Source: a virus
Lineage: Duplodnaviria > Caudoviricetes
Virus record (IMG/VR): IMGVR_UViG_3300036715_000180
Location: 1-24,808 of that record
DNA: 24,808 bases
Direction: 5' to 3' (one strand)
The first letter of the stretch is position 1. Each line of letters opens with the position of its first letter. The notes under the pieces are model-generated. The model was given only the letters and a program-made list of their open reading frames with translations. It had not been told where the DNA came from and did no database searches. Made by a program: the position numbers and the translations under genes. This document shows, one piece after another, positions 5,030-24,808 of the stretch.

Positions 5030-6085
5030 ATGTCAGTATCAGCATATTCAAATATAACGCAGCGGGTAGGCACCCTGAAAGGTGAGATCTTATCTCACGC
5101 TGCACCAGTCGAGGTTTTATCTTTGGTCGGTACAGATAAAGATAAAGTCATTCCAAAAAACAAATCCAATAACGTCAAGTTTCGTCGTTGGCTGCCTTAC
5201 GGTGGTGTTGATAATCAGTGGATCACTGCATCTAATGTCGCTTCGTTTGCATCAAGTCAAAGTGCGGTAGATGGTGTAACGCCAACTGCAGATACATTGA
5301 CACCAACAGACATCACTGCAACGCTTGTACAGTATCTTGTTCTGTACTGCGTTACAGATCAGATGACCGACATGCACGAAGATGGCGATATCATCCCTGA
5401 TGAAGCTAAGCGTCAAACTGGTCAACGTATGGGCTTGATTGGTGAAATGGTGCGTTACGGTGCTTATAAGGCGGGTACAACTGCTTTCTATAGTGGCGGC
5501 ACAAATCGCAGCACAGTCTCCAACACAGTGACAATCAATGTCTTGCGTAAGGTTGCCAAGACATTGTTAACCAATCATGCACGACCAATTACGCAAGTAT
5601 TAGTTCCATCAACCAACTTTGCCTCGGCACCAATTGAAGCTGCGTTTATTGTGTTCTGTCATACCGACTTAGAACCCGCTATCCGTGACTTGCCAAACTT
5701 CAAGGACATTGCCAACTACGCACAACGTAAGCCAATCCACGATATGGAAATTGGCTCATGCGAGCGTTTCCGTTTTGTCTTGTCCCCTGAGTTGGCTGGC
5801 TATCCTGATTCTGGCGCAGCAATTGGCTCAACAGGCATGATCTCAACTACAGGCACATTGATTGACGTTTATCCAATGATCATGATGGCCGATGAATCTG
5901 TTGGTCAAACACATTTGGGCGGCGTTGAAAATTGGGATGCATGGTACTTGCCGCCTTCACAGCGCGATAAGTCTGATCCAGGTGGACAACGTGGTTATGT
6001 TGGCGCGAAGTGGTACTACACCGCCATTATCCAAAACCAAGGCCGTCTTGCTGTTGTCGAGGCGGGCACACCGTACCTGTCTTAA
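5030..6085 (+). CDS. Major capsid protein, N4-gp56-like family (351 aa)
   Basis: AGGAG SD. Motifs IPKNKSNNVKFRR, GVTP, FCHTDLEPAIRDLPNF, EIGSCERFRFV and DKSDPGGQRGYVGAKW match the N4-gp56 major capsid pattern. Confidence 0.92.
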   Translation: MSVSAYSNITQRVGTLKGEILSHAAPVEVLSLVGTDKDKVIPKNKSNNVKFRRWLPYGGVDNQWITASNVASFASSQSAVDGVTPTADTLTPTDITATLVQYLVLYCVTDQMTDMHEDGDIIPDEAKRQTGQRMGLIGEMVRYGAYKAGTTAFYSGGTNRSTVSNTVTINVLRKVAKTLLTNHARPITQVLVPSTNFASAPIEAAFIVFCHTDLEPAIRDLPNFKDIANYAQRKPIHDMEIGSCERFRFVLSPELAGYPDSGAAIGSTGMISTTGTLIDVYPMIMMADESVGQTHLGGVENWDAWYLPPSQRDKSDPGGQRGYVGAKWYYTAIIQNQGRLAVVEAGTPYLS

Positions 6086-6143
6086 TTAACTAACGATGAA
6101 AAAGGCGGCTAGTTCAGCGCCTTGATTATCAGAAGGAATAAAC

Positions 6144-6356
6144 ATGGCTGAATCAATTAAACAGCGAACTAATTCGATGGCAAATCACCGTGACGCGGAG
6201 GCAATGCGTAAGTTACTTACTGCAACGCAATCCGACCTTGCGGCGATACGCTCATCGTTTATTCTGCTGACCGCAAAGTTAGATGCTGATGCGGGTGTTA
6301 CCGACACCACATACAGCTCCCTGACTAATCCCCCTGCACTTACTACATTAGTATAA
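6144..6356 (+). CDS. Hypothetical protein (70 aa), possibly capsid-associated
   Basis: AAGGAA SD; follows the capsid gene; helical region then KLDADAGVTDT. Confidence 0.7.
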   Translation: MAESIKQRTNSMANHRDAEAMRKLLTATQSDLAAIRSSFILLTAKLDADAGVTDTTYSSLTNPPALTTLV

Positions 6357-6366
6357 GGAAATTATC

Positions 6367-6735
6367 ATGGCTCAAAATATAGCAGGTCAAACACTGACCT
6401 ATTTACCATCCCAAGGCTCGGCAGCTTTTGCCAATGGTCTTAATGTTCTCGATGCAACGGCAATTGTCGCCACTGATTACATTGAAATCGTTTGCGGCTT
6501 TAAACCAAAGTATGTCAAATGGGAAAACGTCACGGATCGCGTCTGCGGTGAATTTTACGAAGGTATGGCGGTTAACAGTTGCATCAAGACCGCCGCTGCA
6601 GGCACTCGTACTCTTGAAGTGACTGGCGTGAACGGTGGTATCACCATTACCAATACAGGTTTTCGCGTTCTTCAAAATGCGACGCTTGCACTGGTATTAG
6701 CTTCAAAAACATGCGCTTGGCGCGTTCAGGCGTAA
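6367..6735 (+). CDS. Hypothetical virion protein (122 aa), possible head decoration protein
   Basis: AAGGAA SD; beta-rich with a GFKPKYV motif; lies between the capsid gene and a strong terminator, consistent with capsid-level expression. Confidence 0.7.
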   Translation: MAQNIAGQTLTYLPSQGSAAFANGLNVLDATAIVATDYIEIVCGFKPKYVKWENVTDRVCGEFYEGMAVNSCIKTAAAGTRTLEVTGVNGGITITNTGFRVLQNATLALVLASKTCAWRVQA

Positions 6736-16753: not shown

Positions 16754-17823
16754 TGGGGATTTTCTTAGCGGCACTGGCAGCAGCTGGCGATGCTGGCGTT
16801 CAGTCGATGAATCAGAATATTGATCAGCAGAATCGCTCTGATTTAGAAACTCAACGGTCTGAACTGGCAACGCAGAAGGAGAAAGCGCTGACTGATTACA
16901 ATAATCAGGCAAAGATAAATTATGATAATCAAGTCAGAAAAGCAAGATCGGATGAAGTGAGTGATGGCGCACAAAAACTGGCACAACTACGTGCAGATGT
17001 CGCTAATCAAAATGCACAAGACCAAGGAGACGCCGCAGAGAATGCCTATGCAAACGCACCAGGTCTTTCTGATAGTGATAGGCGTGCTGGCATTATGGCA
17101 TCTCGTCAATACACCAAGGACAATACAACTAGCGGCAAGGCAGTGGCAACGGACGATGATATCCTGCATGCATCCGTCAATGCTGGATATACAAGCCCGA
17201 TGGAATTGCTGGCGATGAAGAAGCAAGATGCCCTTGCTAAATCACAAGCGATGCTAGCGGACATTAAAGAGCGTCATGAAGATAATAATGTTCAAAGGAC
17301 GATTCAGGCTGGAGAGCAAAATGCCAACTGGATGAAAGTTATGATGGCGAGAATTGAAGCGGATAAGTCGTCCAGTTCTGATAGTGAAGATACGGCAGCC
17401 ATCAAAACAGCAAAAGTCATTCAAGCCGATGAGAAAGGTCGAGGCAATGATATTTCTCTCGCGGAAGCAATTGACCGGACGCATAAGGCAGCAGATGCTG
17501 GAAATAACTTTGCGTTAAATTATGCAAAACTTCAATCGGAAGCTGGAATGATTCGACCAGATAAGGGAGATCCAACTAAGCCGGCACCGGGTAAATTATA
17601 TGCAACGGTTGACGATGCAATCGCAGCAGGTCAAAAAGCATTTATCAATCCTAGGGCGACATCAAAGCCAAGTGCCGCACCAAAACCTAGTAATTCCGAT
17701 AGTTCATTAAAAATTGCAAATGGTGTTACTTACGGAGGAAAAACTATATCTTATGATGACGTTCCCGCTGGCGCTACGTTCACCGATCCAAACGGAGTAA
17801 CTAGAATCAAAGGCGGTAAGTAA
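16753..17823 (+). CDS. Putative ejection protein (356 aa)
   Basis: AGGAG SD; short hydrophobic N-terminus, coiled coil, C-terminal YDDVPAGATFTDPNGVTRIK; TAATG-coupled to the giant ORF. Confidence 0.7.
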   Translation: MGIFLAALAAAGDAGVQSMNQNIDQQNRSDLETQRSELATQKEKALTDYNNQAKINYDNQVRKARSDEVSDGAQKLAQLRADVANQNAQDQGDAAENAYANAPGLSDSDRRAGIMASRQYTKDNTTSGKAVATDDDILHASVNAGYTSPMELLAMKKQDALAKSQAMLADIKERHEDNNVQRTIQAGEQNANWMKVMMARIEADKSSSSDSEDTAAIKTAKVIQADEKGRGNDISLAEAIDRTHKAADAGNNFALNYAKLQSEAGMIRPDKGDPTKPAPGKLYATVDDAIAAGQKAFINPRATSKPSAAPKPSNSDSSLKIANGVTYGGKTISYDDVPAGATFTDPNGVTRIKGGK

Positions 17824-20800
17824 TGGCAAATCCTTGGGATAACGATGCTGTAGTCAGTGCGCCTTGGGAAAATGATAAACCTGTAGCGGAATCCAAAGGC
17901 ATCATTGCGTCTGCATGGGATGGCGTGAAGTCTGCTGCAAGCAATGTCGCTGATGGCGTTGCAAGTGACGTGAAGAGTTTATATAGCTCGCCATCTAGCG
18001 TCATGGAAAACCTCGACCAGAAAAATCCAACGCCGTTGAATGAGCAGGGAACATCTAACCCTGCTCTCGGCCCGATGCGTAAGGATTATGTTGATAGCGT
18101 TCGCGCCAAGACATTGCCAGATCAGATCGATCAAGCTAAGACAGATCCGCAAGCGGCCAAGATTGCAGCGCAAACGCTTGCGCGGTCTAAGCAACCTGAT
18201 ACTTTATCGATGACTAATCAGGACATTTCTGACCACGCAGAAAGAATGTTGCATGGTGATGCTGCGCCAACTGATCTGTATGGCAATACTGAAATGCAGA
18301 AGGTTGACGATACCCCATACCAACTGACAAAGGAGGATGTTGATCATTTGATGAAATCTGGCGCCACTCTGGAAATGAGTAGCGGCTCAACGATCAAGGA
18401 TATCACTGCCAACGCAATGGGCGGCCTGTTGACGACCGGCGCGAAGTCTGTCGCCGCATTCAGTGATGCAGTTGGCGCTGATGATATGGCTGCAAAGGCC
18501 GATGCTTATGCCAAGCACGTTAATGAAATCATGCAGGAAAATGGAGGCAGCTCTGTTTCTGGAAAAGCAGCAAGTATTGTTGGTGCGATCACCAGTGTTC
18601 TAGCCTTGCCAGAATTGGCACTTGCTCATGTGGCGGCGAATGCTGGACTGTTTGCGATCCCTGCTTTCCGTGATACGCTAAATGAAAAGCTAGCCGAAGG
18701 TAATAGTTACGGAAATGCATTGTCACATGCTGTTGCTTCGTTTGGCGTAAATATGTTATTGCCAACAGTCGCAACAAAAGGCAGTGGCGCGGCTGCCAAG
18801 TTGTTCGGTGCGGCTGAAAAAGACTCTCTTGGGCAGACTGTCATTACGGCTACTGGCGCAAAGGGCGCAGCGGCACAACTAGGTTCTGCTGCTGCGGAAG
18901 GCGTTGGATTTTCGCTAGCTAGCCATGGCATTGATAAAGGCATTGATTTTGTATCAGGGCAAAAAAATGACTCTCAGTTAGATTCAAAGGATCTATTGGC
19001 AAACGCTATTGCTTTTGTTGCATTGCGAGGTCAACAAGCAAGAAAGCAGTACAATGGCTCTGCACTACATGATCAAATCGCAAATGAAATAAACTCAGTT
19101 AATCTTGCTGATGATTCGCAGTCAGTAGCCTTAAATAGACTCAAGCTAGATCCAAATTCAATTACACCACAAGAAACCGTTAAGCCTTTATTGGCGGCTC
19201 CCCTCGTCAATTCAGTTGCGCCTACAGTTGCCACCGACACACTAAGCAAGCTCAACGCAATCCGTCCATCGCCAGCCGATCAAATGTCATCCCTTCTCAG
19301 TCCAGAACAACGGGCATCGCTAGAGCAGGCAAAGAGCGAAGTCGTAGCAAAGCAAAAAATTGATAGCATCACCAGCGCACCGGATATTGATACGGCGATT
19401 GCAGCGGCGAAAGAAGCGGTCATTGCACCGATAGAGCAAAATACTAATCCAGCAAGAGAAGGCTATACGCCTGCAAGTTGGGTATTGCGTGAGAAAGCTA
19501 CTGGTAAAGTCATTGCTGAAACATTCGATCCTCAGAAAGTGGCCGCGCTTAATACTGACAAATACGAAGCTGTTCCTATCAATGAACATCTTGGAAGTCT
19601 ATCTAGCCACATTGCTGAATCGACTCAGGCGATTGATGCAGCAAAAGCAAAGGCACAAGAAGCCGCTGATCTGGCAGAGCATAATCGCATGGGCGAAGTC
19701 GTCTCACGCGAACAGTTGCCTATCGACAGTCCAATGACAGTCAATAAAAATCAAGTCACGCAAGGTATGCATGATCTCTTTGCGGCACATGATGCGATTA
19801 CCGGAACTAAGACGGTCATCGTTGATAAATTACCTGGGCATGCTGACGGTATGATGGTCGGCAAGGATGGAACAATCTACATTCACAAAGATGCGTCCAT
19901 TAACCCGATTGATGTCTTCAATCATGAAGTGTCGCATGTCACCGATCAAATTCTTGGCGACTCTGCAACGATCAAGCTTGCTGACGATGCAGTAACTTCT
20001 TCGATGACACCAGAAGCAAAAGCCCGTTATGCCATGTATTACCACGGCGGAGAACTTCCTGAAAACATCAAAGGTATTCTGACGACTGAGCAGCTTGCAC
20101 AAGCGGAAAAAGGCAGTCTCACCAAGAAAAATGCAAAAGGTGAATGGGTCAACGACCTGAAATTAACACCTGAACAATCGAATAAGATAGCAGATATTTT
20201 CCACAATAAAGATGGCAAAGGTACGGCTTACATTCAAGAATTACGGGCAGACTTACGCGCTCATGCTGTCAAAGACTCTGGATACTGGAAGACATTCAAA
20301 GATTCCTTGATTCAGCATTTTGGCGAAGAGAAGGCCAATGGAATTTTCACCAATCTGGCGAATGCTTTCAAAGCGACATTGGAGAAATACCAAGAAGCGT
20401 ACAAGAACAAGCCATCATTTGCGATTAAACAATTAGTTAATAATCACCAAGAGATTTACAACGCCATTGCTAAAGCAGATGCCGAGGCAACGAATGTTCG
20501 TGAAGTCGTTAAGGTCAAGGCAGAAAAGAAACAAGCGGAAGCAGCGGCACGCAAAGAATTAATTGATGGCTTGCAAGAAAAAACGAATAAAGAATTACGT
20601 GGTATTGCGGCAAATCATCCTCGCGTCTATTTGAAAAATGCGGCCGCAGAGTTAGTTGCAAAACGTGACGCTGATTTACGCTTGAGTAAGTCGATAGCGG
20701 CAAAAGACCAACTGAAAAAGTCATCTAGCGTCAATCCAAATGTCGATAGCATGGCTGATGCAATTGCGAAACTTGGCGGTATTAATCGCGAAAGTGTGGC

Positions 20801-23800
20801 GCAACGCTTGCAATTATCTCCTGAAGAACTCAATGCAAAGGGGCAAGTCGGCTTCCGTGCGGCACCGTTATTCCACAAGTACGGCATGAATATCGAGCGC
20901 ATGGCAGAACGCCTGGCAGAGCTTGGCTATATCCACATGGACGAAGGCGGCAAGCACGACCAGCACGACTTTGAAGACAAGTTAATGGAAGTAGCAAATG
21001 GGGTTGAAGTTCACACGCCTAATGCTATGATGTTAAGAGCGCAAGCAGAACATGAGCATGCCATGCAGGAAGTTGGCGTGGAGTCGAAGGGTGACTTTGA
21101 ACATGTTGAAGATCGCGGTGATGCTGTTCAAGATGCCGTAGAGGGTAAACGCGATCCATTGGATGATAGCGATATTGCTTTCTTTGATCATGAGATCGAA
21201 AATAAAACTACCGCGCAAAATATGCGTGATCTTGGCTTTAGTGAAGAGGAAATTAAGAATGAACTTGCCAGAGAAGAAGAATCCAACGCCAGAAGAGAAG
21301 CGGAAATTTCTCATTCTGATGAGGGAATTTCACAAGATACCACCGGAAGAACGGGTGATGGTAGCGAAAGAGATGAAGCGCCGTATTCTCTCCAAGGCGA
21401 AAGCGCAGACGAAGCCAACGCAAGGCTAGAGAAAGAAGACCGTCAAGCCTACGAAGACCGTCAATCCGAGCAGGAACAGCATAACCGCGCCCAAGCTGAT
21501 AAGGAAGTTGGTAACTTCGGATTGACTGGCAGCGACCGTTCGGCAGATCGCAACGATGGTCAGAATAATTTGTTCAGCCCGAAGCGCGAAGATTACAAAT
21601 GGGAGACTGTCACTGAGACTGAAAATGGACCAGAGTTTAGCAATAAGCATTTTCTCTTACTGCCTACGCATGTGGACAATACATTCGATGCGAAATGGTT
21701 TCTTGGTGGTCGAGAGTATGCAGAAAGTAATGCGCATCACTATTGGGTATTTGATAAAAATAATCAAAAAGTCGCTAATCTTTCCCTTGAAATTGCGCAT
21801 GGCAAGATAGAAAAATTGCTTTCTATTGAGGTTGAGCCTACACTGAAAGGCAAGGGAATCGGCCGTGATGTTGTTGGCTCATTGTTAGCAAATGACAATT
21901 ATCTTCCTGATCATGCGGGGCAAGGCACTGGCTATGATGATTTACTGGCAAGTACCGATAAATATTTAAAAGTCTTCGATATCTTGAAGCAAAGTGAACC
22001 ATTCTGGAAAAAGGTAGGGGCAGATGAACTCAACGCAGACAATAACGGACAAACCAACTGGTCAAGTTTTGAGCGAGGACAGGCACGCAGAGAGGATGCG
22101 CCGCGCCAGGGAGGGATCGGAGAAGGCAATGCAGAGTCCGGCGAACCAGGAACGATTAAGTCAGGCCCTCGCCCGGATGCGTCAGGTTCAGAAAACGAAG
22201 TAAAGTATTCGCCTAAGCGCGAAGAAACATGGCACTACAGCCAACTATCAAAATCCATCGAAGAAGCGCCTGATCGCGTCTTTGGTGCGCCTAAACAAGT
22301 CGCAATGTGGCTGGACTCTAACGCTGGCAAGCTAGGCGTTAAGAAGGACGAAATACAGTGGACGGGTGTTACCGACTGGCTCAACATGCAAACCGGAAAA
22401 GTATCTAAGGCTGATGTCTTGGATTACTTGCGTTCTGGCGGTGTGCAGGTTCATGAGGTAATGAAGGGCGAGGATCAATATAGATATTTTGTAAAAGATA
22501 TGCAGAAGAAGTATGGTGATTCTTGGGTTGGCGATTTGTCCGATGCTGAAAAGAAAAAGAAAGAAGATTTTTTCAATTCAAGCAATGAGTTGGGTCAAAC
22601 AAAATATGAACAATATCAATTACCAGGTGGTGATAACTATCGTGAGTTATTGCTGACATTACCTAAAAATCAGGTATTGCCAGAAGGTTATTCCGTCATA
22701 GACAATCCAAGTTCAGCGCAAAATGCAAGAAAATTTATTGTCATTGATGGAGATAATAATAGGCTTGGAAGCGGCAATACAAAAGAAGAGGCTTTGCAAA
22801 CTTATTTTAATCATCATCAATCTGGTGATATGTATAAGTCCACCCATTGGGATGAAAAAAACATTCTCGCGCATATCCGATTTAATGACCGTACAGATAC
22901 CGAAGGCAATAAGGTTCTCTTTATAGAAGAATTGCAATCGGATTGGGGACAAGAGGGCTTGAAGAAGGGATTTAATTCACCAGATGATTACGAAAAAACA
23001 TTAGCCGATTTAAAAGCTAGATACCATGCAGCACCAGATGATAGTCCGCAACAAGACTCATTGCGTCGTCAGCTTGAAGACATGGTTTTATCCGATAATA
23101 AGAAAGGCGTACCATCTGCCCCATTCGTCACTAAAACAGAATCATGGCTACAGCTAGGCATCAAGCGCATGACAGCTTATGCCGTTGAACATGGCTATGA
23201 TAAGGTGGCTTTTGTGAATGGTGAGCAGTCTTCTAGCCGGTATGACCTGACAAAGCACATTGACGAAATCAGTTACCTGAAAAAACCAGATGGAAGTATT
23301 GCCACAATATCAGCAACAAAAGACGGATCATTTGTCTTTGATAAGCACAATATTGATATGGATGAAGTCGAGGCAACATTTGGAAAAGAGATTGCTAAAA
23401 AGATTGAATCAAGCGAGGGGCATAGCGATAATCGAGGACGTAAAGTTTTAGAAGGCGTTGATCTCAAAGTCGGCGGCGAAGGAATGAAAACCTTCTACGA
23501 TAAAATCGTTCCTCAGAATATCAATGATGCCTTAAAGAAGATTGGCGGCGGCCGGGTTGAGGGCGTGGATATTGGCGTTCCAAATGAGATTAAGTATTCT
23601 GTTGAAGAATATCGCGGTCCGACTGCGACACTTGAGCAAGTCAAACTTGTTCTTGATGTAGCTTCCAAGCCTGGCTCCGTATGGGAAAGCCCGATAACAG
23701 GTGAGCGCCAAGATGGCGTAGTCTCTCGTATTGCCAATGAAAATCCTTTAAAGAGAATAGTCAAGTCAATGGAAAATGGATCTTCATTTGAAGATGCAAT

Positions 23801-24808
23801 GGCAGAATTTCCATCTGATAGCGTGGCTAAAATCTTTGGTGGTAAGCTAATTGATGCAACTCCACCTCCTAAAATTGAAACATCATCGCAAAACGGCTTC
23901 ACAATAACCGACGCAATGCGTGACAAGGTAAGTCAAGGCTTGCCTTTGTTCTCACCAAAACGCCAAACAGAAACGCCAGAGTTTAAAAAGTGGTTTGGCG
24001 ATTCAAAAGTCGTTGACGATGAGGGTAAGCCGCTTGTTGTTTATCATGGGACTGGCGAAAACTTTAACGAGTTTAGCCTTGACAAGATGGGGTCATTTTC
24101 TAATGCTGATTCTGCCAAAGGCGGGTTTTTCTTTACAGACAGCAAGCCGCTTGCAGAGCAATTCAAGCAAGAGGCACAACGTAAAAATTTGAATTATGGC
24201 GATATTCGAAAAAAACTAAACAATCTTGATGATGCTGAATTTAAAAATCTAGCTACAGATGCGGGCCTAAAATTAGACCTGGAGATAGAAGGTAAGGAAT
24301 TTGTCATTGATAGCATGATAGATCGACTTGAACGAGATAACGATACATCTTTTATTGATGATAGAACTAATATTGATAGAGATATAAAACGATATATTGG
24401 GAAAGATGCTTTTGAGAAGGGAAATGTTGTTAATGCTTATTTGAGTATTAACAATCCAATGGAAGTTGTTGTTGATAGTGGATCTGAATTTGACGAGGAC
24501 TTGATAAATTCATCTATTAAAAAAGCGAAACTAGGCGGCTATGATGGGTTAGTCATTAAAGGTATGCTTGATTCTGCTGCTTCGGATGATCGCGGCAATA
24601 ATCAGATAAGTTCAAATGTTTATATTGCATTTACGCCTACCCAAATAAAATCCGCTACAGGTGAGAATAGGAAATTCGACGCAAGCAATCCTGATATTCG
24701 GTTCAGCCCAAGACGCGATATGCCAGATGTCATCATTGGCAACCCGCTAGGTGAACTGGCAAATCATGCCGAATATGAAAAGGCAAAGGCTGGAGATACA
24801 ATTTCCGC
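17823..24808 (+). CDS. Giant polyvalent ejection-type protein, at least 2,328 aa, 3'-truncated (zincin, GNAT, unassigned domain, ART-PolyVal-like, further domain)
   Basis: ATG at 17823 overlaps the upstream TAA. Manual translation (MANPWDNDAVVSAPWEND...) shows no in-frame stop to the window end. Motifs: HEVSH 19923-19937, KGKGIG 21846-21863, FWKKVG 22002-22019, IEELQSDW 22923-22946, YHGT 24042-24053. Confidence 0.92.
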   Translation, partial: MANPWDNDAVVSAPWENDKPVAESKGIIASAWDGVKSAASNVADGVASDVKSLYSSPSSVMENLDQKNPTPLNEQGTSNPALGPMRKDYVDSVRAKTLPDQIDQAKTDPQAAKIAAQTLARSKQPDTLSMTNQDISDHAERMLHGDAAPTDLYGNTEMQKVDDTPYQLTKEDVDHLMKSGATLEMSSGSTIKDITANAMGGLLTTGAKSVAAFSDAVGADDMAAKADAYAKHVNEIMQENGGSSVSGKAASIVGAITSVLALPELALAHVAANAGLFAIPAFRDTLNEKLAEGNSYGNALSHAVASFGVNMLLPTVATKGSGAAAKLFGAAEKDSLGQTVITATGAKGAAAQLGSAAAEGVGFSLASHGIDKGIDFVSGQKNDSQLDSKDLLANAIAFVALRGQQARKQYNGSALHDQIANEINSVNLADDSQSVALNRLKLDPNSITPQETVKPLLAAPLVNSVAPTVATDTLSKLNAIRPSPADQMSSLLSPEQRASLEQAKSEVVAKQKIDSITSAPDIDTAIAAAKEAVIAPIEQNTNPAREGYTPASWVLREKATGKVIAETFDPQKVAALNTDKYEAVPINEHLGSLSSHIAESTQAIDAAKAKAQEAADLAEHNRMGEVVSREQLPIDSPMTVNKNQVTQGMHDLFAAHDAITGTKTVIVDKLPGHADGMMVGKDGTIYIHKDASINPIDVFNHEVSHVTDQILGDSATIKLADDAVTSSMTPEAKARYAMYYHGGELPENIKGILTTEQLAQAEKGSLTKKNAKGEWVNDLKLTPEQSNKIADIFHNKDGKGTAYIQELRADLRAHAVKDSGYWKTFKDSLIQHFGEEKANGIFTNLANAFKATLEKYQEAYKNKPSFAIKQLVNNHQEIYNAIAKADAEATNVREVVKVKAEKKQAEAAARKELIDGLQEKTNKELRGIAANHPRVYLKNAAAELVAKRDADLRLSKSIAAKDQLKKSSSVNPNVDSMADAIAKLGGINRESVAQRLQLSPEELNAKGQVGFRAAPLFHKYGMNIERMAERLAELGYIHMDEGGKHDQHDFEDKLMEVANGVEVHTPNAMMLRAQAEHEHAMQEVGVESKGDFEHVEDRGDAVQDAVEGKRDPLDDSDIAFFDHEIENKTTAQNMRDLGFSEEEIKNELAREEESNARREAEISHSDEGISQDTTGRTGDGSERDEAPYSLQGESADEANARLEKEDRQAYEDRQSEQEQHNRAQADKEVGNFGLTGSDRSADRNDGQNNLFSPKREDYKWETVTETENGPEFSNKHFLLLPTHVDNTFDAKWFLGGREYAESNAHHYWVFDKNNQKVANLSLEIAHGKIEKLLSIEVEPTLKGKGIGRDVVGSLLANDNYLPDHAGQGTGYDDLLASTDKYLKVFDILKQSEPFWKKVGADELNADNNGQTNWSSFERGQARREDAPRQGGIGEGNAESGEPGTIKSGPRPDASGSENEVKYSPKREETWHYSQLSKSIEEAPDRVFGAPKQVAMWLDSNAGKLGVKKDEIQWTGVTDWLNMQTGKVSKADVLDYLRSGGVQVHEVMKGEDQYRYFVKDMQKKYGDSWVGDLSDAEKKKKEDFFNSSNELGQTKYEQYQLPGGDNYRELLLTLPKNQVLPEGYSVIDNPSSAQNARKFIVIDGDNNRLGSGNTKEEALQTYFNHHQSGDMYKSTHWDEKNILAHIRFNDRTDTEGNKVLFIEELQSDWGQEGLKKGFNSPDDYEKTLADLKARYHAAPDDSPQQDSLRRQLEDMVLSDNKKGVPSAPFVTKTESWLQLGIKRMTAYAVEHGYDKVAFVNGEQSSSRYDLTKHIDEISYLKKPDGSIATISATKDGSFVFDKHNIDMDEVEATFGKEIAKKIESSEGHSDNRGRKVLEGVDLKVGGEGMKTFYDKIVPQNINDALKKIGGGRVEGVDIGVPNEIKYSVEEYRGPTATLEQVKLVLDVASKPGSVWESPITGERQDGVVSRIANENPLKRIVKSMENGSSFEDAMAEFPSDSVAKIFGGKLIDATPPPKIETSSQNGFTITDAMRDKVSQGLPLFSPKRQTETPEFKKWFGDSKVVDDEGKPLVVYHGTGENFNEFSLDKMGSFSNADSAKGGFFFTDSKPLAEQFKQEAQRKNLNYGDIRKKLNNLDDAEFKNLATDAGLKLDLEIEGKEFVIDSMIDRLERDNDTSFIDDRTNIDRDIKRYIGKDAFEKGNVVNAYLSINNPMEVVVDSGSEFDEDLINSSIKKAKLGGYDGLVIKGMLDSAASDDRGNNQISSNVYIAFTPTQIKSATGENRKFDASNPDIRFSPRRDMPDVIIGNPLGELANHAEYEKAKAGDTIS
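21259..21429 (+). CDS. Putative nested small protein (56 aa) in +1 frame of the giant ORF
   Basis: GAGGA at 21246-21250, 8 nt before ATG. Reads MNLPEKKNPTPEEKRKFLILMREFHKIPPEERVMVAKEMKRRILSKAKAQTKPTQG. The main frame here is a low-complexity linker. Confidence 0.5.
   Translation: MNLPEKKNPTPEEKRKFLILMREFHKIPPEERVMVAKEMKRRILSKAKAQTKPTQG
21573..24716 (+). repeat. Dispersed (F/Y)SP(K/R)R junction motif, 4 copies
   Basis: FSPKR 21573-21587, YSPKR 22206-22220, FSPKR 23949-23963, FSPRR 24702-24716, all in the giant ORF frame. Confidence 0.85.
22024..22203 (+). CDS. Putative nested small protein (59 aa) in +1 frame, directly after the GNAT core
   Basis: AAGGTAGGGG at 22011-22020 before ATG. Reads MNSTQTITDKPTGQVLSEDRHAERMRRAREGSEKAMQSPANQERLSQALARMRQVQKTK. 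The stop lies 2 nt before the YSPKR junction codons. Confidence 0.5.
   Translation: MNSTQTITDKPTGQVLSEDRHAERMRRAREGSEKAMQSPANQERLSQALARMRQVQKTK

Follow-up and report, generated by a model that had tools for sequence, protein, structure and literature searches.

A +1-frame gene candidate behind a GNAT-like domain in a giant phage protein, and its place in a class of nested genes that follow particular domains of polyvalent proteins

How might a phage make a giant, injected protein whose enzymes attack the host and yet spare its own replication? The locus described here raises this question and, if the reading developed below is true, would go some way to answering it. The window (the whole 24,808-nucleotide stretch analysed, a 24.8-kb contig) has a tailed-phage character, with genes for a portal, a major head protein, an SU10-type adaptor, an Rz-like spanin and tail fibres. 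A plus-strand gene for a giant polyvalent protein (17823–24806, >2328 aa) lies 3′ of the portal, major capsid, adaptor, tail and spanin genes and is still open at the end of the window. Within it, right behind a GNAT-like domain, is a short +1-frame reading frame, ORF B, which the preliminary description took for a candidate inhibitor overprinted on the gene of the enzyme it would silence. Iyer et al. (2017; PMC5512222) inferred that polyvalent proteins are packaged in the capsid and injected, and that RimI-like GNATs acetylate proteins. In its multidomain build, its conflict domains and its virion-gene context, the giant ORF fits the proteins portrayed in the passages of that paper: an ART-PolyVal domain (Pfam E 5e-21, above cut-off) and a weaker GNAT-type domain stand beside virion-gene neighbours.

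In the giant ORF, [FY]SP[KR]R motifs at 21573, 22206, 23949 and 24702 mark off a series of modules; a degenerate version of this junction pattern is not above chance over the gene (10 matches versus 6.7 expected). On the plus strand, the order is as follows. An unnamed main-frame domain, here called preA (20727–21257; no Pfam match), is followed by a first +1-frame reading frame, ORF A (21259–21429), which has 56 aa from its best start, where an SD-like GAGG (−6.0 kcal/mol) makes for a better candidate than the longest ATG. The junction motif FSPKR (21573–21587) opens the GNAT module, in which the GNAT-fold domain (21588–22079) runs into ORF B (22024–22203), and YSPKR (22206–22220) closes it. 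Next come a conserved unnamed domain common to 80 related loci (22224–23240; hereafter the shared domain) and the ART-PolyVal module, from FSPKR to FSPRR (23949–24716). Just 5′ of ORF A (21033–21255), the allele in sequencing runs X2 and X3 has diverged from that of the window by 51 differences and 14 gaps, a recombination-like patch. At 22205–22219, contigs of runs X3 and X4 match either from YSPKR onward or up to YSPKR, with unrelated flanks, as expected if modules swap at the motif.

Four tests, each weak, agree with the earlier reading of 21588–22079 as a GNAT. The domain is matched below cut-off by Pfam (E 0.007) and NCBIfam (E 8e-4), scores 0.94 in the Atlas, and has an acetyl-CoA-binding-type motif near 21831–21870. 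The top structural matches of the module's model are GNATs, with Z-scores of 6.0 or less from a poor model (pLDDT 58), and a Foldseek search with this model and that of LPD37 (see below) returned nothing at E 0.001 or better. Weak but concordant, these results point to a GNAT-like module with predicted acetyltransferase activity. There was no match to toxin families. DNA homologues of the GNAT were not found in viral contigs, metagenome contigs, genomes, phages or plasmids, a pattern search of metagenome contigs gave four matches, all unrelated, and a search for stand-alone GNAT proteins was blank. The one homologue, P0003, is a protein sequence only, 66% identical over the GNAT. Its order is preA domain, linker, GNAT, G/R/Q-rich linker, junction and shared domain, so that a linker of the same type is present in frame.

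The coordinates and sequence given previously for ORF B (22024–22203, plus strand, +1 frame, 59 aa) were verified, and ORF B has its own start signal and an open frame inside a longer gene. The SD-like AAGGTAGGGG occupies 22011–22020 within the KKVG codons of the GNAT, 3 nt ahead of the ATG at 22024, and its duplex with an anti-SD 9-mer has a calculated energy of −8.3 kcal/mol. The preceding +1 stop, TAG at 22015–17, is itself within AAGGTAGGGG, which makes the ATG the third codon of the open stretch. At the other end, the TAA (22201–22203) stops 2 nt short of YSPKR, and the GC contents reported earlier (40/60 at 22081–22140 and 21/60 at 21961–22020) are both exact. Both of the GC-richest of the gene's 692 60-nt windows fall in ORF B. 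The description of the main frame as a G/P/R/E linker is partly right: these residues make up 27 of 61, but the first 16 codons of ORF B overlap the conserved tail of the GNAT, where QTNWSSF is identical in P0003, and only the remainder lies over the GC-rich linker.

Such a frame could arise by chance, with a hydrophilic linker poor in L/I/V/M opening the +1 frame, Asp-Glu codons yielding the ATG and KKVG codons yielding the purine run. We assessed this by synonymous recoding with the main-frame protein held fixed. At the ORF B site, an ATG appeared in 75% of recodings, an open frame in 19% and such an SD in 4%; all three coincided in 0.66%, a post hoc figure that nonetheless speaks against chance, as does the fact that ORF B starts and stops at the exact ends of the GC-rich stretch. 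Across the whole gene, 0.44 such ORFs were expected versus one seen (P 0.36), so ORF B alone is not beyond chance expectation. A +1 stop requires a main-frame L/I/V/M codon and there are only four of these in the 60 residues over ORF B, which makes ORF B by itself weak evidence. Nor did the claim that its product is strongly helical survive this control. Helix propensity (P 0.66) and hydrophobic moment (P 0.68) were no better than those of the recodings, and helicity and amphipathicity were rejected as support for ORF B. The argument from adjacency to the junction fared no better: a stop lies beside a junction motif in 7 of 69 nested candidates versus 6% at random positions, and the placement was rejected as a general rule.

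ORF B matched no family in Pfam, PHROGs, NCBIfam or PADLOC, RHH/DUF1778 included, has no homologue within reach of our sequence searches (best local phmmer E about 0.5) and joins none of the nested families identified in related loci. Between the window and P0003, codon position 2 is kept in 11 of 24 linker substitutions versus 25 of 45 in the GNAT core, which is no excess. The P0003 linker is compatible, in the +1 frame, with as many as 20/32 residues identical to ORF B (main frame 10/34), which we take as a lead only. Hand counting in the 30-nt loose end of a related contig gave 5 of 10 residues kept for the +1 frame against 4 of 10 for the main frame, which is uninformative. One contig, of depth 3.4, has the sole variant in ORF B, at position 22070; it changes ORF B but leaves the main-frame protein as it is and, like the lack of a homologue, speaks for a chance frame. 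Three sigma-70-like sites were found versus 1.8 expected and were not used as evidence. On the other hand, the anatomy of ORF B matches that of nested families found elsewhere, for example behind LPD37, and on balance we regard a chance frame as unlikely.

Two further explanations concern the reading frame as such. Parts of ORF B recur in an unshifted frame on contigs from three other runs, whose near-identical pieces are gap-free (run X1, possibly the source, is left out); ORF B is therefore not an assembly error. SD-like runs can stimulate +1 shifts, as in prfB, and programmed +1 ribosomal frameshifting would give a shortened polyprotein ending in ORF B, with its stop at a module boundary. 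However, the +1 frame opens only two codons ahead of an ATG that has an SD at initiation distance, and related nested ORFs start with a canonical GGAGG-ATG, which together make frameshifting very improbable.

The case for ORF B as a gene comes from its context. A +1 coding score was computed in 115 sliding windows across the giant gene, using a codon model trained on other loci. Only five windows reached 0.00 or more, and all five fall on ORF A, the top +1 coding peak of the gene, or on ORF B. ORFs A and B are thus the +1-frame coding-signal peaks of the giant gene; in line with a chance frame, one window within the GNAT comes close, at −0.02 versus 0.00–0.03 for ORF B. Among 773 distinct +1 ORFs of at least 40 aa from the window and the 80 related loci, ORF B ranks 62 by this score. 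The share of ORFs with a strong SD is 5–9% in the three lowest score bins (660 ORFs), 48% in the bin of ORF B (29 ORFs) and 60–75% above it, a trend that is supportive rather than decisive because base composition and SD strength are not independent. Homology adds to this picture. There are 17 homologous pairs among 112 nested candidates, of which seven have no main-frame match; divergent nested pairs resemble each other more closely in their +1 products than in their main-frame ones (58% versus 39%), and one pair is 46% identical over 92 aa in the +1 frame with no main-frame match at all. In tblastn searches with the nested products, all matches but one were in the +1 frame of giant genes.

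We then asked which domains have a nested ORF behind them. Twenty-three hand-seeded domains were searched in the giant ORFs, with identical copies merged and copies at ORF ends dropped, and a domain was scored as paired when a nested candidate had its start between 150 nt before and 240 nt after the end of the seed. The labels are read from motifs except for ART-PolyVal, LPD37, LPD1, Zeta, DUF7178, PRTase and the GNATs of L023 and L058, and the counts come from related loci that are not independent. Nested ORFs follow an unnamed domain of L008 in six of eight instances (all of one family), LPD37 in 3/3, preA in 6/10 (the window included), LPD1 in 2/3, PRTase in 1/2, and the Zeta toxin and the window GNAT in 1/1 each. 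None follows the end of ART-PolyVal (0/55 instances of related loci; 2/56 at its start), the MPTase-like (0/11), ParB-like (0/4) or RadC-like (0/2) domains, or six other unnamed or tentatively named domains (0/9, 0/6, 0/4, 0/3, 0/2 and 0/1), and the shared domain has one in just 1 of 71 instances. DUF7178-type domains gave 0/8 in the preset window and 6/8 after a later widening to +620 nt, which is not firm evidence. The Pfam-supported GNATs of L023 and L058 had none (0/1 and 0/1), nor did a domain that is GNAT-like by motif only, with no Pfam hit (0/3).

Together, the homology and the survey indicate, at the level of sequence, that SD-led nested +1 genes in polyvalent proteins are real and placed behind particular domains. 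The expectation that polyvalent genes would carry such ORFs after effector domains was thus borne out for particular domains but not for other GNATs, and GNATs in polyvalent proteins do not all need a nested partner. Because the nested genes are real and follow particular domains, the cassette idea holds at the class level, even though the junction and helicity arguments failed their controls. Hidden frames recur behind particular domains of related giant genes, and on this ground ORF B is probably a real nested gene whose translation is predicted, although it is among the less well supported examples of its class. A nested candidate lies no more than 450 nt upstream of the shared domain in only 12 of 56 distinct instances, and these belong to unrelated families. 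The upstream domain is therefore the better predictor, and ORF B belongs with the GNAT side; if it is a real gene, we consider it likely to be coupled to the window GNAT.

Some of these pairings deserve description in their own right. In L020 (6669–6830), a +1 ORF with a GGAGGAG leader begins over the tail of a Zeta-toxin-like domain and continues behind it, an anatomy like that of ORF B; a scan for further copies of this Zeta domain returned only the query's own contig. In L008, L022, L026, L028, L029, L043 and L066 (e.g. L029 3658–3840), a nested family resembling a helical hairpin follows one unnamed domain whatever lies downstream. That domain has no Pfam match; by eye it is reminiscent of SAM lyases. 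Free-standing copies of the nested family or of the L008 domain were not matched in cultured phages.

The pairing that serves as an analogue is that of LPD37. The set comprises 22 viral loci and three cultured Erwinia phages; 18 of the 22 loci (one truncated and three near-duplicates dropped) and two of the three phages were compared after anchoring by eye on a main-frame motif, and the third phage also has the ORF. A stretch of 77 codons behind LPD37 is free of +1 stops in all 20 loci, whereas 18 of the 20 have such stops in the domain core. The nested products align, with one invariant Trp; their starts vary (SD −2.1 to −12), and the partner is conserved with LPD37 in all 20 loci. Over a dual region of 21 codons, both frames are conserved, the main frame no less than the +1 frame (38% versus 33%), which counts against the analogy. 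In the cultured phages Pavtok (L087, 1844–2068), Stean (L088) and PEp14 (L089; both 1850–2074), it is an unannotated 74-codon GTG-start +1 ORF in a DarB-like giant gene. From the sequence comparison, the C-terminal part of Pfam LPD37 appears to be dual-coding.

The LPD37 model (pLDDT 85) has as its nearest structures minimal GNATs, AcrVA5 first (Z 5.8, rmsd 3.3, 81 residues aligned), which suggests that the N-terminal part of LPD37 (L092 2477–2860) may be a putative acetyltransferase of weakly GNAT-like fold. It has no profile similarity to the window GNAT and is thus only an analogue. Complex prediction for LPD37 and its nested protein gave 0.34 (runs of 0.00, 0.43 and 0.34) versus 0.12 for the best of three controls; at least 14% of contacts were shared between runs and the partner pLDDT was at least 59. 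Of 157 solved pairs, 116 came up to the mark for such scores, as did 2 of 215 mismatched ones; 18 of the 157 and both of these mismatches did so at 0.60 or under. The prediction that LPD37 binds its nested protein is thus weakly supported by modelling.

What, then, might ORF B do? Translation of the late mRNA would also begin at the SD-ATG inside the giant gene, and the helical protein so made would attach to the GNAT and hold the enzyme inactive while the giant protein is synthesized. From the position of the gene and the passages of PMC5512222, the giant protein would then be packaged and injected without the partner, leaving the acetyltransferase free in the next host. Such a cassette may have originated as an enzyme gene with a small downstream partner gene, after which the main frame came to be read through the partner and the pair became part of the polyprotein. 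We put forward, tentatively and as the likeliest of the readings considered, that ORF B is a cognate inhibitor predicted to bind the GNAT-like domain and to form one cassette with it. The coding peaks at ORFs A and B, the domain-specific pairing, the constancy of the LPD37 partner and the P0003 arrangement of a GNAT with a linker of the same type are all in keeping with this. The lack of a homologue, the gene-wide expectation and the absence of any helicity excess count against it, as do the GNATs without a nested ORF (L023, L058 and the three motif-only instances), the linker codon positions and the variant at 22070. ART-PolyVal, a presumed effector, never has a nested ORF behind it, some nested modules lie upstream of a shared domain instead, and the domain ahead of ORF A is not known to be an enzyme.

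Several of these points would sit equally well with a real nested gene that is not a GNAT inhibitor and instead encodes a chaperone for folding or packaging, an adaptor for substrates, or a small protein that acts on the host independently and stays with the module by linkage. All of the evidence for a real gene applies equally to this possibility. Nested ORFs occur behind domains without known toxicity, such as preA and LPD1, and also in trains or upstream of domains, and other GNATs manage without one. Set against it, one nested family stays constant behind one domain though the downstream domain differs, and the complex prediction lends weak support to binding by the LPD37 pair. We hold this alternative possible but doubtful. 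If ORF B is coupled to the GNAT, an inhibitor is a somewhat better guess than another kind of partner. Extending the inhibitor reading to the whole class, phage polyvalent proteins would consist of effector-immunity cassettes captured one after another. A +1-frame inhibitor would lie in the linker behind every internal domain that could harm the phage's own host cell, among them the GNAT, LPD37, the Zeta-type kinase, PRTase and DUF7178. A single mRNA would then yield the virion protein with its several toxins as well as the antidotes, and the protein would be armed by being injected without them; as a general rule this is rather unlikely.

The GNAT/ORF B arrangement can be compared with several known systems. 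In GNAT-RHH type II toxin-antitoxin systems (KacAT, with DUF1778 antitoxins), a small adjacent protein is proposed to neutralize the GNAT by contact (PMC6698736, PMC9177977). The pairing of a GNAT enzyme with a small adjacent protein is alike. However, ORF B has no RHH/DUF1778 match and is nested, in another frame, behind its enzyme within a polyprotein gene; the GNAT, itself internal to that protein, has no toxin-family match, and there is no stand-alone two-gene operon. The pair is not a member of that family. If the inhibitor reading holds, it would work by analogy like an effector-immunity cassette. In polymorphic toxins, among them the MuF toxins of phages, the toxin domain comes last in its protein and immunity is encoded by a separate gene. 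The likeness to these lies in a small partner gene right behind an effector domain, swapped as a unit; here, by contrast, the main frame continues through the partner. Embedded out-of-frame genes include Rz1 in Rz of phage lambda, comS in srfAB of B. subtilis and traH in traI of IncP plasmids, each of which, as proposed for ORF B, starts independently within a longer gene on the same strand. The difference is that here a variety of nested families recurs, and each family goes with certain exchangeable domains of one polyprotein.

The polyvalent proteins of phages and conjugative elements in PMC5512222 share with this locus a giant multidomain protein among virion genes and a GNAT near an ART domain; they differ in that the main text uses 'overlap' and 'linker' 0 times and nested partner genes are absent from its passages. 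Across open-access abstracts and passages of PMC5512222 and PMC13551039, nested genes in polyvalent proteins are not described. New here are the domain-by-domain pairing survey with its negatives, the observation that not all GNATs are partnered, and the presence of the LPD37 pair in phages in culture. If the idea is true, dual coding would extend to many 'linkers' and to the C-terminal end of LPD37 as modelled in Pfam, and natural inhibitors would make unstudied enzymes clonable. Since the LPD37 pair occurs, unannotated, in the cultured Erwinia phages, the idea is directly testable.

Other nested or short reading frames were noted along the way. Behind preA in L024, L031, L036, L041 and L048, short basic helical ORFs resemble ORF A by eye (phmmer not significant). 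A Trp-rich nested family occurs in the N-terminal part of giant genes (L004 4359, L015 5016, L017 525, L028 1470, L048 3729, L066 4710 and L080 21); its members share little upstream or downstream homology and the family is not bound to one domain. A short nested module lies 5′ of an unnamed domain that is shared by L020 (9123), L025 (3079), L034, L050 and L059 (7392), sometimes fused to another nested family. In the window, 5′ of the portal gene, a 233-aa ORF of short repeats (262–963) has BON/YscD-like Pfam hits. Lastly, L075 has a 200-codon +2-frame ORF (5770–6372) that overlaps a large gene and shows, by eye, HNH-like motifs.
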